A stretch of 64,000 nucleotides of DNA from Eledone cirrhosa (taxonomy: Eukaryota), in the NCBI GenBank assembly GCA_964016885.1, contig OZ024741.1:90334001-90398000 (forward strand), in the 5' to 3' direction. The translations under genes were made by a program, and so were the position numbers. The notes beneath the pieces are model-generated. The model had not been told where the DNA came from and searched no databases. It worked only from the letters and a program-made list of their open reading frames with translations. Below, one piece after another: positions 2,149 through 32,914 of this stretch (position 1 is the first letter of the stretch; every line of letters starts with the position of its first letter).

Positions 2149-2330
2149 TCACCATATATAATTGTGTCAAAATTCATTTCTAGACTGTTAATTCCTTTTT
2201 GTGGAATATTCTACTAAATATCTATATTGTAAAGCCTCTTCTCATTGGCTATATACTGCAGGCAAGAGAATATCAGTAGGATTACTGTCTTATAATTTTT
2301 TGTAAATGTGTATATATATATATATATATA

Positions 2331-2720
2331 AAAACAACTAACTAACGAAACGAAATTAAATTTCGTTTCGCTTCTAACTCACTTTTGTATGACTGACGCT
2401 TAAACAATTAAGTTAAAGTGTACATCTACATATGTATACGGAAGTACTAGTATGCATATAAATACACACATGTATACATATGTACATGTACCGAGTACAT
2501 ATGTATACATTTGCCTTTCATCCTTATGGGGTCGAGTATCCCTTTAATATTTAGAAATATGGCTATGAAAGGGCTAAAACATAAGTTTGTGTAATTTTAC
2601 AATACAATATCAAGTCTACTGTAGATATCGGTACATGTACATATGTATACATGTGTGTATTTATATGCATACTAGTACTTCCGTATACATATGTAGATGT
2701 ACACTTTAACTTAATTGTAT
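2331..2720. mobile_element. Mosaic insertion: inverted and direct pieces of the hammerhead-repeat family (see 32142-32840) enclosing copied local DNA
   Basis: 2331-2496 is the reverse complement of about 32277-32440. 2628-2718 is a direct copy of about 32280-32369. 2510-2535 copies the SINE core near 2020-2045, and 2534-2625 copies host sequence 1822-1914. Confidence 0.85.
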
Positions 2721-2777
2721 ATATATATATATATGTAGAAACACACATAGTGAAATTCCATTCTGACGAAATTTTAC

Positions 2778-5239: not shown

Positions 5240-5350
5240 AACGAGTAGGACCCCGACGGCTGAGCTCAAGCTGTTTCGACGGCTAATTCGAGTCCAGAAT
5301 TAGCCGTCAAAACGGCTTGAGCTCAGCCGTCGGGGTCCTACTCGTTCCTA
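5236..5350. repeat. Near-perfect GC-rich palindrome (54-bp arms, 7-nt loop)
   Basis: 5236-5289 versus 5297-5350 are reverse complements with 2 mismatches. Confidence 0.95.
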
Positions 5351-5635
5351 TTACCCACTCTACTACCCTAAGTATTGAGTACGTTGGTGCGTTATGGTCC
5401 ACCTGGTTTCTTACCACGTTTCCTTCGTTATATATATCTATCTATATATATATATATATATCAAGATAAGCAGAACAAGTAAAATTCAACCAATTTTTCA
5501 AAATAAATCAAAATTAATTTAGAATTAAAATTAATCAAAATTAAAAAATATAATATAAATATTTACCTATTTAAATGGCCCTTACTGTACAGTTTCATGT
5601 TGCAAAACATTAGATATCACATGGATATTAATGGA

Positions 5636-28864: not shown

Positions 28865-29052
28865 TATATAAATCTACACACATATATATATATATATATA
28901 TAAAGATACATACATATATATAAATATACATACATATTTATATAAATATACATACATACATATATAAACTTTAATCTGTTATTTTAATAAATATATATAT
29001 ATATATATATACGATATTAAACAAATGGAAACTACATTTATAAAACCATATT

Positions 29053-29118
29053 TATTTCATTATATATATTTCAGGGATATCATATTAAAAATATGGTATG
29101 CCCTCTTCAGACAAAATA
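29053..29118 (-). ncRNA. Type I hammerhead ribozyme motif in the 3' pseudo-LTR of the Penelope-like element
   Basis: Minus strand reads UAUUUUGU-CUGAAGA-GGG..CAUAUU uuu AAUAUG..CCC(U)-GAAA-UAUAUA-UA|AUGAAAUA: 8-bp stem I with 2 G-U pairs, palindromic stem III, one extra U before GAAA. Confidence 0.65.
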
Positions 29119-29731
29119 CAATATATAAACAGTTTTATAAATAAATAAATTTGACATACCTTAAAATTTTACAACTTCCATTTAAAAAGTTGTTATGGTA
29201 GTGAAAATGTTAAGGACAGTTAGAGACGGAGAAAAAAAAAGAAAGAAAGTGTATAGTGCTAAGGACAGTTAGAGAGGAAGCTGAAGAGGATGAAGAAATG
29301 TATGTAAAGAAAAAAACCACAGAGCGAGATAGAGAGAGAGAGATATGGGAGAGAGAAATATTGAGGAGGTGAAAATTTATTTATTTATTTATTTATTTAG
29401 TTATAGTGTTAAGGATAAATAAATAAATAAATAAATAAATTTTCACCTCAATATTTCTCTCTCCCATATCTCTCTCTCTCTATCTCGCTCATACTTCTTT
29501 CGTCACACACTCTGTGACCTCTTCAGTGACTGGGGATTCCTTTCTTTGTTTCTGTGCCTCTCCTTTGTTCTGTCCTACGCCATTTTGTTTCTGTGTGTGT
29601 GTTGTGTGCTCAGTCTGCGCATGCGCCACATCCGGGTGTCTGTGTGTGTTTATGTTCATTTATTTATTTGTTTATTTACATGTTACTGGTTGGTTGTTTG
29701 TTCTATGTGTGTGTGTGTTTTCATTTTGTCC

Positions 29732-31690
29732 TTAATTGTAAGTTGTGATGTTGCTGTTCCACTCATATTTTCTATTTAATTTTGGTTGTAATTCTTTTAT
29801 GTTTATTGCCTCTGTGATTTGTCTAAACATTGCGTCTTTTCTGTGTGTAGATTCTATTTTTATTTCTATGTTCTCTAATTTACCCTTGTGTTCTATTTTA
29901 GAATGTTGGTAGAGTACAGATGATTCTTTACTGTCTTGAAGGTCTCGCCAGTGTTCATTTATCCGTTCCCCTACACTACGAGCTGTCTCACCTATGTACA
30001 TTATATTTTTGTCTCTACATTGTCCTTCAGTACATCTTATGCTATACACTACATTTCTAGTTTTACAGTTAATATGGGGGCTTATTTTACAGGTTATACA
30101 TTTCTTATCTATACATGAGGGTCTTTGAAAAGGGTATGTCTCGCTAATAAGTGTTTTTACGGAAGTACCTGGTCTTTCTACTATCTTAATATTGAGTTTA
30201 TGTTTATTTAGGGCCCTTCTAAATTTGTAAGCTAATTCACCTCTAGGGGTTGTATCGATGAACATTACACTCTGGTATTTATTGCTATCATACCATGAGT
30301 TTATTCTATTAGCCTTCTTCCAAGTTCTTTCTATTCTATTCCAAAATTTGCTCCTATACAAGGGGCAGGTCCCATTTATGTCATTATTTACCATTTTTTC
30401 CCATTTGGTTCTGGCTCCTCTATACACTCTGATTCTATCTCTCTGATTGTAGCCAGAGAACTGCATACGGTGGATGAAGTGTTGTATGTGTCTCTCTAGT
30501 TCTTCGGGGTTGCACATGCGGGACACGTTTCTCATCACCCGTACCAAATCCGCAATCAGTATGTTGATTTTGGTATGGTCCGAAACGGCCGAGTTTCGGT
30601 GGATCAGATGTTTGGAAGTCATGGGTTTGGCATGGGTTTGTTTTTTGTTATTAATGGTATCTAACCAGAGCTCTGTGTCTAGTACAGGTAATCGATGGTT
30701 GGGGTGTTTACTTGGGTAGTCTATAGTAACTATAATGCTCTGGTGGATGGAGTTAGCTATTTGCTGGATGCTTTCCATTGTGCTTTACTCTAATTCCTGA
30801 CTGTTCTCTAGTGGGGGTGTCTTAACTACGATGTTTATATCATCAACGTAGCGGGAGTACATTATCAGGGTTAAGGGGTCTTCTAATTGTTCTTTAAGTT
30901 TAAGTTTAAGTCTACTGTCCCACCATACCATGAATAAGTTAGCTATGTCGCCTGCAATGCTAACACCAATGGCTGCTCCTTCCTCTTGGGCATATGTTTT
31001 TCCATTAAATTTGAACATATGATCCTTAACGGTTAGTTTTATGCTGGCCCCTACCGCATGTGCAATCATTTTCTTCAGTTCATCGTGGTTTTCGGGTGTC
31101 CGTATGGCTCTGGTCCACCCGTTCCATCTATCTGTGTGGGTTTTCTTGGCCATTGAGGTAATGGTAGGTGGTCTGCCTCTTGCTGGTCTTGTAGGGCACA
31201 GGTTGCTAAGGTCATATGTGTCTAGGTAATTATTACTATAGGTAAGTTTAAGTAGGAGTCCCAGCTCACTGGTATCAATCCCACGGAACTCAACATTGCT
31301 CTCACTGATCATTTCTACGCATTTCTCCACAGCAAAATCCACGTCAATAGATGGATACAGGGACACAACATCCATACTACCTATTATGCAGTTTGTTAGG
31401 TCCCTAGATCGGTTACTCACGCCGATTCTGCTGAGGAGGTCCTCCGTGCTGTCACGTACATCTGGGGACATTTCAATGATGGGGCGTATGATCAGGGAGA
31501 GAAAGTAGGACAGTCTGTAGTTACTAGCAATGTTAGCTCCACAGACTGGCCGTGTTGGTGGTCCCGCGACAGGGTCACTGCCCGTTTTATGGTCTTTTCG
31601 AAGCCCATACAACGCCGGCACATCATTGTTCCAGGCCTGGAAGTTGTTGGCAGTCCTTTTGTTGGGCTTCATTATATTCGTCCACATCAC
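29732..31690 (-). pseudogene. PLE RT-GIY-YIG ORF with a single in-frame TAA at 30785-30787
   Basis: ORFs 30785-31753 and 29732-30778 are in the same frame, separated by a stop and two codons; the N-terminus is lost at the inversion junction near 31691. Confidence 0.88.
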
Positions 31691-32046
31691 CATAAAACTC
31701 AATATTAAGATAGTAGAAAGACCAGGTACCTCCGTAAAAACACTTATTAGCAAGACATACCCTTTTCAAAGACCCTCATGTATATATAGGAAATGTATAA
31801 CCTGTAAAATAAGCCCCCATATTAACTGTAAAACTAGAAATGTAGTGTATAGCATAAGATGTACTGAAGGACAATGTAGAGACAAAAATATAATGTACAT
31901 AGGTGAGACAGCTCGTAGTGTAGGGGAACGGATAAATGAACACTGGCGAGACCTTCAAGATAGTAAAGAATCATCTGTACTCTACCAACATGCTAAAATA
32001 GAACACAAGGGTAAATTAGAGAACATAGAAATAAAAATAGAATCTA
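31691..32046 (+). mobile_element. Inverted duplicate of the PLE GIY-YIG segment
   Basis: Nearly identical reverse complement of about 29848-30203, with a CATAAA microhomology at the junction. Confidence 0.92.
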
Positions 32047-32837
32047 AACAATTAAGTTAAAGTGTACATCTACATATGTATACGGAAGTACTAGTATGCA
32101 TATAAATACACACATGTATACATATGTACATGTACCGAGTCCAATATTCCTGTCTGGCTCTCTGGAGAATAGAGGAAGTGTGTTTCCTTGAAAACTCGTA
32201 TGACTTTAAAACCCGGTTCGTCTGTTTGTTTACATACAGACTAGCTGGACACTCACTGTAAAGTGTCTAGTGAAAAACTCGGTACATGTACATATGTATA
32301 CATGTGTGTATTTATATGCATACTAGTACTTCCGTATACATATGTAGATGTACACTTTAACTTAATTGTTTAAGCGTCAGTCATACAAAAATGAGTTAGA
32401 AGCGAAACGAAATTTAATTTCGTTTCGTTATTTGTTTTTATCGTTTCCGCTGAACCGGCGCGTATAATGACTCACGTTCTATGCAAATTAGTCTGCCCAC
32501 TACTGATTTTCATAGAAAAAGCATATAACGATATGTGCTTTTACAATTCTCCAGAGAAGCCGGAAGATAGGTATATATTGCTGATGAGATGTAATAACAT
32601 CGAAACTAGTCCAATATTCCTGTCTGGCTCTCTGGAGAATAGAGGAAGTGTGTTTCCTTGAAAACTCGTATGACTTTAAAACCCGGTTCGTCTGTTTGTT
32701 TACATACAGACTAGCTGGACACTCACTGTAAAGTGTCTAGTGAAAAACTCGGTACATGTACATATGTATACATGTGTGTATTTATATGCATACTAGTACT
32801 TCCGTATACATATGTAGATGTACACTTTAACTTAATT

Positions 32838-32840
<3 letters not shown>
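32047..32840 (+). mobile_element. Non-coding hammerhead tandem unit (470-bp period; candidate retrozyme or mini-PLE) preceded by a short inverted piece
   Basis: 32138-32370 equals 32608-32840 (period 470); 32047-32140 is the reverse complement of about 32277-32370; ends in (TA)n. Confidence 0.85.
32548..32639 (+). ncRNA. Type I hammerhead ribozyme with an intact core and extended stem I
   Basis: AUAUUG-CUGAUGA(32581-87)-GAUGU aaua ACAUC-GAAAC UA GUC|CAAUAU. Stem I extends to UUCUCCAGAGA/UCUCUGGAGAA. Predicted cleavage after C32611. Confidence 0.88.

Positions 32841-32914
<74 letters not shown>

Follow-up and report, generated by a model that had tools for sequence, protein, structure and literature searches.

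The 64,000-nucleotide (nt) window analysed here, from the genome assembly of Eledone cirrhosa (GCA_964016885.1; contig OZ024741.1, positions 90,334,001 to 90,398,000), contains a composite insertion made of six segments from three families, which meet at five junctions inside one (TA)n tract (window positions 29010-32842). Segments X and X' come from PLE-B and segments A and B from PLE-A, two families of Penelope-like elements (PLEs), whereas segments C and D belong to a 470-nt family of hammerhead retrozymes (Table 1). All of these are already known kinds of element, and the composite is a three-family fusion of them. Its PLE-A core looks slightly older than the neighbouring segments, and we consider the chances about even that it was assembled stepwise, with later insertions replacing both ends of a PLE-A copy. 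The composite does not reveal which enzyme moves the retrozyme.

The order from left to right is X, X', A, B, C and D; X, A and C point left and the other three right, with a flip of orientation at all five junctions. Microhomologies of 2-4 nt were found at these junctions (in order, TA, TC, CATA plus one extra A, TA and AGT), and no (TA)n spacer was present between the pieces. An initial annotation of the window had already noticed such joins; its AGT was confirmed, whereas its CATAAA and TAA were shortened to CATA plus an A and to TA, respectively. The (TA)n bounds on both sides and the 1.5 direct units of the hammerhead repeat (period 470, 100% identical in self-comparison) were likewise borne out, as was the inverted copy of the GIY-YIG region (31695-32050 versus 29844-30199; 356 nt, 98% identity, six internal differences). 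The inverted piece of the hammerhead unit was also found, with a length of 96 nt rather than 94 nt. That annotation had described a PLE, its own inversion and a hammerhead RNA, and had inferred that the PLE RT jumped onto the latter. A simple jump between co-directional RNAs does not fit the alternating orientation, nor the B/C (PLE-A/retrozyme) junction, which is tail-to-tail and located at the normal start site of the retrozyme. Both PLE-A termini are missing from the composite.

The window lies on a single 416-Mb contig of a 3.0-Gb assembly, in which the C/D junction, searched as an exact pattern, occurs once. No second copy of the X'/A join was found among the best 40 of 522 candidates, and none of the B/C join among the best 40 of 1301. 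The counts from genome searches given here refer to ascertained samples, with about 40 of the best candidates scored per search. Comparison of positions 29012-32090, a region that stops short of the C/D junction and D, with four contig sets yielded matches of which those listed (32 of about 30,000) measured about 85-270 nt; none of these spanned a junction. Several private alleles of A had no support in these contig sets, and the sampled individuals may lack the composite copy.

Table 1. Segments of the composite insertion, its flanks and its predicted hammerhead motifs (window positions; EN stands for endonuclease, pLTR for pseudo-long terminal repeat and RT for reverse transcriptase).
Feature	Positions	Strand	Basis
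(TA)n target tract, left flank	28996-29011	.	sequence
X: 3' end of PLE-B (part of the pLTR), ending at the PLE-B short terminus	29010-29419	-	
PLE-B hammerhead-like motif; CUGAAGA core, U before GAAA in most copies	29053-29118	-	predicted
X': fold-back copy of X, not native to PLE-B	29418-29490	+	
A: 5'-truncated PLE-A, RT, then EN, then pLTR	29489-31694	-	
Minimal type I hammerhead of PLE-A	29489-29530	-	predicted
B: inverted PLE-A endonuclease segment	31691-32046	+	
C: inverted retrozyme arm, unit positions 140-235, from the retrozyme short terminus	32045-32140	-	
D: 1.5 units of the 470-nt retrozyme, ending at the short terminus	32138-32842	+	
Type I hammerhead of the retrozyme	32574-32617	+	predicted from sequence
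(TA)n target tract, right flank	32841-32910	.	sequence

Judging from its translations, PLE-A is an endonuclease-bearing (EN+) PLE of the Neptune/Nematis type. Its minus-strand frames matched RVT_1 (E 2e-4) and GIY-YIG (E 2.3e-4), both below the Pfam curated cut-offs; the motifs of an RT followed by a C-terminal GIY-YIG EN are visible despite these sub-threshold matches. The translations exhibit CX4CxxC ahead of the EN and two cysteines within it (CCHH type), and the definition of Neptune/Nematis includes a CCHH motif with two cysteines between GIY and YIG, as well as a CX2-5CxxC linker (PMC8557442). The RT and GIY-YIG frames of the minus-strand PLE initially placed at 29010-31690 therefore stand, but positions 29010-29490, taken as its 3' untranslated region and pLTR, belong to PLE-B. 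PLE-A copies consist of partial tandems with pLTR and hammerhead, an inverted arm and a tail of about 60 nt. As in the other families, their ends are short or long, which we attribute to two internal start sites, as in the element Poseidon (PMC11167929; PMC8557442). One short and one long end were observed in 28 of the 29 two-armed copies, and the remaining copy resembles a long end carrying a small insertion. Other PLE-A copies leave the match to the window at 29489, run into different sequence and reach one of two fixed ends, located about 150 and 210 nt beyond this position and each followed by (TA)n; A lacks these last 150-210 nt or so. Moreover, A carries a private stop codon (30782-30784) and a private in-frame deletion near 30634, and B stops about 500 nt before the family terminus. 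A and B share sub-lineage alleles, and neither allele set was found in any other copy. A donor with the alleles of A was not found among the best 40 of 567 candidates. The idea that B was copied from a distinct donor haplotype was unsupported: each of the two rare alleles of B is present elsewhere, but no copy combines them. At another locus, a PLE-A arm has its short site capped by 34 nt of a PLE-B end (L207:4235-4561).

PLE-B, for which the region 29010-29419 gave 1346 first-look candidates, appears to be a second autonomous PLE family, of the Hydra type. One copy (L091) contains tandem pLTRs and a 749-amino-acid frame with DKT, a CxCX5C linker, and CxxC and CxH around the end of the EN, without CCHH; copies of the family are flanked by (TA)n targets. 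All of these features are given for the Hydra clade (PMC8557442). The comparison with that definition is less clear-cut for three others: the frame has RWR instead of RWK, the unit measures about 3.9 kb versus less than 3 kb, and the hammerhead, although its core is present, has an irregular closing of stem II in most copies instead of being canonical. The PLE-B tail is about 87 nt. Just beyond the short and long start sites of the L091 copy, we observed two similar small hairpins. Segment X differs from the nearest PLE-B copy at 1 of 401 sites. Together with X', it forms a hairpin (29322-29490; z -16 for 146 nt folded), in which the 73-nt fold-back X' follows a loop of about 16-20 nt and shows no substitution and one 3-nt deletion. 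The small inversion first noticed here is thus real, but its place in the PLE-A untranslated region is not: it is a private fold-back of the PLE-B piece. The hairpin was rejected as a native PLE feature, being absent from all 29 other PLE-B copies examined.

The family of C and D is, on its sequence features, an animal non-LTR retrozyme, with non-coding, tandem units that each carry a type I hammerhead motif. A search gave 969 first-look candidates, the best copies being 99-100% identical. Among the 32 insertions with two classed ends (from 60 complete-insertion rows, including one split array and one duplicated pair), 30 had one short and one long end, two had two short ends and none had two long ends. 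The two short+short cases are the composite and L105, where another repeat adjoins the right end. Moreover, 84 of 87 termini adjoin (TA)n, C being among the three exceptions, and the tail is 69-74 nt long. The retrozyme insertions thus carry footprints of PLE machinery, in the Penelope architecture. Since their short and long ends match the tail pattern of PLEs, we strongly infer that the family is moved by some PLE enzyme of the E. cirrhosa genome. Beyond AT-rich low-complexity matches, the unit showed no significant likeness to PLE-A, PLE-B, the part of PLE-C compared or family Z, and no homology to pLTRs was found in the same comparison. A start-site hairpin shared with PLE-A or PLE-B was not found either.

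Several observations concern the retrozyme elsewhere in the window and genome. A second copy in the window (2328-2721) has long and short ends with unrelated filler between its arms, one of which stops at unit position 140, as C does, between two hairpins; 7 of 91 retrozyme junctions fall at unit positions 135-150 (p 0.04). An older relative (84-88%) is located outside a TA tract, with an apparent target duplication of 9-11 nt (L216:8244-9343), and at L137:1200-1282 the other side of a retrozyme arm consists of flanking target DNA copied by fold-back. Within the unit, an octamer-like ATGCAAAT was found at 32481-32490, about 100 nt before the hammerhead, and presumably resembles promoters of the small nuclear RNA type.

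The composite contains three hammerhead motifs, one per family, all predicted from sequence; an Rfam scan of the window gave no match at the gathering score, hammerheads included. The motif at 29053-29118, initially ascribed to the PLE of segment A, belongs to PLE-B, and PLE-A has its own (Table 1). Cleavage of the latter is predicted between 29492 and 29491, within 1-3 nt of the X'/A junction, such that A ends 1-3 nt past the cleavage site. In intact PLE-A copies, a short (TA) run lies 1-2 nt after this cleavage region. The retrozyme hammerhead, first reported at 32581, was recognised by its type I core: it comprises CUGAUGA, a stem II of 4-5 bp, GAAA, a palindromic CUAG and an extended stem I, with a GUC cleavage triplet ending at 32611. 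Of 200 motif matches, 193 have the same core. The start of D lies 1-4 nt ahead of the cleavage site predicted for this motif. Among 91 retrozyme 5' junctions, whose positions were read by hand before the enrichment test, nine fell within 10 nt of this site (4.1 expected, p 0.02) and four within 5 nt (p 0.17).

To place these joins in a wider context, we counted joins between adjacent recognisable segments, excluding segments <28 nt, low-complexity matches and gaps >40 nt; these limits leave out a short arm of family Z in L006. Head-to-head joins without TA comprised 133 within families and three between families (one retrozyme/PLE-A and two PLE-A/PLE-B). There were four co-directional joins between families and 11 between PLE-A segments. 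Tail-to-tail joins occurred 14 times with a TA spacer and three times without, two of these in the composite and one in L114. The spacer-less joins of the composite are unlike ordinary stacked insertions. Overall, PLE-A was joined to the autonomous PLE-B at four loci (the composite and three others), and the retrozyme was also joined to PLE-B-type, PLE-C, family Z and sister retrozyme sequences. Of the five spacer-less retrozyme joins in the census, three were with PLE-A, the commonest recognised PLE partner (the composite, L092 and L093). The cleanest two-family insertion, with TA on each side, is L092:2590-3865 (G000:C3:310817591-310818864), in which a PLE-A short-end arm and a retrozyme long-end arm, both young, stand head-to-head. 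Two further head-to-head insertions unite PLE-B and PLE-A, one with a short PLE-B and a long PLE-A end on young arms (L328:308-4130), the other with two short ends (L329:294-3340). L114:45-6655, on another contig, repeats the zig-zag of the composite: a PLE-B-type tandem with a long end is followed by an inverted internal piece and by retrozyme arms with a short end, joined through a 6-nt microhomology without TA spacer, at about 50 nt from the ribozyme site. Spacer-less joins between families therefore recur in the genome and are promiscuous. As side observations, the 470-nt retrozyme is joined co-directionally to an apparent sister hammerhead repeat at L283:1760-2600, by which recombinant retrozymes might arise, and window positions 5244-5422 contain a copy of family Z, which is short and palindromic.

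In two of these loci, the partner of a young retrozyme arm is older. At L093:2631-5797, the arm (0.12% private) adjoins, with no spacer between them, a PLE-A piece whose nearest relative among the best 40 of 2938 candidates is 94% identical (3.3% private); with this dating, the reading of L093 as a jump in which copying passed from retrozyme RNA to PLE-A RNA was rejected. At L112:2950-4460, the arm adjoins, again without spacer, a clearly older PLE-C piece, and a family Z end is present as well. Spacer-less joins can therefore form with older DNA.

The pieces of the composite also differ in their changes. A and B differ from each other at 6 of 355 sites; taken as internal pairs, A/B show 6 substitutions in 710 sites versus none in 716 for X/X' and C/D/D (Fisher p 0.015). 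Private and rare alleles, counted without the loci overlapping the composite, amount to 21 of 2552 sites in A+B and to 3 of 1193 in X+C+D (p 0.047). The nearest sampled relatives differ by 0.25% for X, 0% for C, 0.32% for D, 0.58% for B and 1.0-1.5% for A. On these age differences, the lack of a donor for A and the precedents of L093 and L112 rests the stepwise reading, in which a two-armed PLE-A copy came first and insertions of PLE-B and of the retrozyme then replaced its left and right ends. PLE endonucleases would have cut (TA)n beside the existing copy, and the outer DNA end would have primed reverse transcription at the short start site of the newcomer, giving X at the left and D at the right. 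Each newcomer would then have gained a short inverted piece: X' would have arisen by fold-back, and C either as a copy of the first 96 nt of D or through renewed priming at the short site. Finally, the free end would have been joined by microhomology inside a PLE-A arm, at the cost of some 150-210 nt at the left end and 500 nt or more at the right end. Within 1-2 nt of the left break, the pLTR of PLE-A has an internal (TA) run that could plausibly have been cut. The tract has, moreover, been hit repeatedly, a point which we count for stepwise assembly: a 30-nt end of family Y, another two-ended family targeting TA, is present at 28965-28995, 15 nt left of X. Also counted for it is L114, whose zig-zag has its junction away from the ribozyme site. 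No reading frame was linked to family Y or family Z.

A number of points weigh against this order of events. With private alleles only, the contrast falls to 9 of 2552 versus 1 of 1193 sites (p 0.18); relatives were sampled by similarity to the query, and the samples differ between families. A and B diverge by 1.7%, which is usual between the two arms of a PLE-A element (0.55-4.2% among the copies compared), and all pieces are young, at under about 1%. Two separate hits must have trimmed both ends of one PLE-A copy, and no other PLE-A outer end sampled was replaced tail-to-tail. The short site is the start of C as well as of D, a pairing seen in only 2 of the 32 two-ended copies, and C, without adjoining TA, is among the 3 exceptions in 87 termini. 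Lastly, the layout is mirror-like on both sides, and the end of A at 1-3 nt from the ribozyme cleavage site is what a jump onto cleaved RNA predicts.

These last features are those of a single event at one break, involving four RNAs from three families, which we regard as possible rather than probable. On the left, the DNA end would copy PLE-B RNA from its short site, fold back and jump to a ribozyme-cleaved PLE-A RNA; on the right, the retrozyme would be copied to its cleaved 5' end and 96 nt recopied before a jump inside a second PLE-A RNA, and the two strands would meet at CATA. The sequence of normal start, inverted piece and PLE-A on each side would then be expected, as would the positions of A and D at their respective cleavage sites, together with the mild enrichment of retrozyme junctions there. 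Jumps within families are common, judging from the 11 co-directional PLE-A joins, L092 and L328 represent young two-family insertions with one short and one long end, and the uniqueness of the junctions within the searches made also agrees with one event. Nevertheless, two fold-backs and two jumps are required between templates that are not co-directional, and both outer ends are of the short type, against the short+long pairing of 30/32 retrozyme and 28/29 PLE-A copies. Like junctions arose at L093 and L112 with older partners, without co-packaged RNAs, and Frangieh et al. did not find in vivo reads that end at the ribozyme site (PMC11167929). The PLE-A core, finally, carries about threefold more changes than its neighbours, so that the single insertion event initially assumed is not shown. 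In either reading, fold-back or a second priming is required to produce the short inverted pieces, as proposed for PLE palindromes (PMC3846280); stepwise and one-event assembly differ in the last joins, made to PLE-A DNA or to PLE-A RNA.

It is unlikely that the RT of PLE-A jumped from its own RNA to that of the retrozyme, which would make PLE-A the specific autonomous partner. PLE-A is the commonest recognised PLE in the spacer-less retrozyme joins, and tail length (the retrozyme being nearer to PLE-A than to PLE-B) and one 10-mer shared by the two tails (E 0.46) lean weakly toward it. However, C starts tail-to-tail where retrozyme copies normally start, the partner is older in one of the three PLE-A cases, and significant sequence likeness and a common start-site hairpin are lacking. 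In the census, fusions of PLE-A with PLE-B were about as frequent as those of PLE-A with the retrozyme, so that dependence cannot be read from fusion. Because joins are promiscuous and two retrozyme chimeras have clearly older partners, a single chimera is not enough to identify the partner, contrary to the initial suggestion. Ligation before copying, in which a ribozyme-cleaved PLE-A RNA with a 2',3'-cyclic phosphate would be joined, in the way demonstrated for U6/L1, by an RtcB-type ligase and the chimera reverse transcribed, seems very unlikely. RtcB joins such ends (PMC6789731; for retrozyme circularisation, PMC7229834), and the X'/A junction is close enough to the cleavage site, but the joint has at least one extra base, an antisense-then-sense PLE-B RNA would be needed, for which no hairpin donor was seen among the copies compared, and only one of the five junctions is accounted for. 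We give as little credence to an assembly artefact, in which reads that were chimeric or folded back would have misled the assembly of a region rich in repeats. It would agree with the absence of a bridging read or contig in the contig sets compared and with the identity of X/X' and C/D save one deletion, but not with the position of the locus within a 416-Mb contig, the six differences between A and B, junctions with microhomology and start sites typical of the families, or the repetition of the zig-zag in L114.

The composite lends some weight to the idea that PLE machinery can write different RNAs into one break, without settling it. We tentatively propose, while holding it to be less probable than its negation, that a Penelope-type insertion loads two RNAs, one per DNA end, using a short start for one and a long start for the other, and accepts RNAs of other PLE clades or of retrozymes. 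L092 and L328 would then be the simple two-RNA cases, and the composite would lie at the extreme, with three families supplying four RNAs to one break and with one jump to a ribozyme-cleaved end. Retrozymes riding PLE machinery, and PLE clades exchanging sequence at insertion, would have direct genomic evidence. The short+long rule and the two-family insertions provide a countable genomic readout of PLE insertion. For the partner of the retrozyme the composite is a poor witness and L092 a cleaner one, while L093 and L112 warn that fused copies alone may mislead. The contributions of this analysis are the census of joins, the dating of the pieces and the promiscuity of the joins.

Twin priming and target deletions in L1 give inverted pieces, target loss and microhomology joins, like those of the composite. 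L1 chimeras also hold two RNAs per insertion (U6/L1, PMC6789731), and in synchronous L1 insertions two insertions cooperate at one rearrangement (bioRxiv 10.1101/2024.08.27.596794). U6/L1 chimeras are co-directional, and ligation ahead of copying can produce them (PMC6789731), whereas orientation alternates in the composite, which has no poly(A) tail and no target duplication visible in its (TA)n flanks.

Among PLEs, the described EN+ elements (PMC8557442; PMC3846280) share truncation of a copy at its 5' end, an inverted copy next to it, a tail on one side only, (TA)n targets, 5' joins by microhomology and palindromes at inverted junctions, and template jumps have been proposed for them. The composite differs by having arms of three families, from two clades plus a retrozyme, and tails in the E. 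cirrhosa families measure 60-87 nt versus 30-40 nt in those elements. Arkhipova et al. (2013) observed no cross-mobilisation between the two PLE types of the host that they studied (PMC3846280). For Poseidon of Anolis carolinensis, in vitro work showed that two internal start sites define the tail, that targets are AT-rich and that both strands are cut and extended, with a predicted dimer (PMC11167929). That account, as far as available, reports no second RNA, retrozyme or two-family product, unlike the composite, and does not quantify the near-strict short+long pairing counted here. The origin of inverted, tailed PLE insertions is stated there, and in PMC8557442, to be unresolved. In literature searches that mainly covered sources outside subscription journals and supplements, we came across no account of fusions between PLE families or between PLEs and retrozymes.

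The 470-nt family resembles animal non-LTR retrozymes in its non-coding tandem units and type I hammerhead (PMC7229834), with a unit slightly above the 150-450 bp quoted for them (PMC7229834; bioRxiv 10.64898/2026.07.22.740005). It shows no homology to the pLTRs compared, unlike the retrozymes of Xenopus (bioRxiv 10.64898/2026.07.22.740005). PLEs have been proposed as retrozyme movers on the basis of co-occurrence (PMC7229834) and of this pLTR homology in Xenopus (bioRxiv 10.64898/2026.07.22.740005); the evidence used here, insertion architecture and fused copies, is not described in the accessible content of either report.

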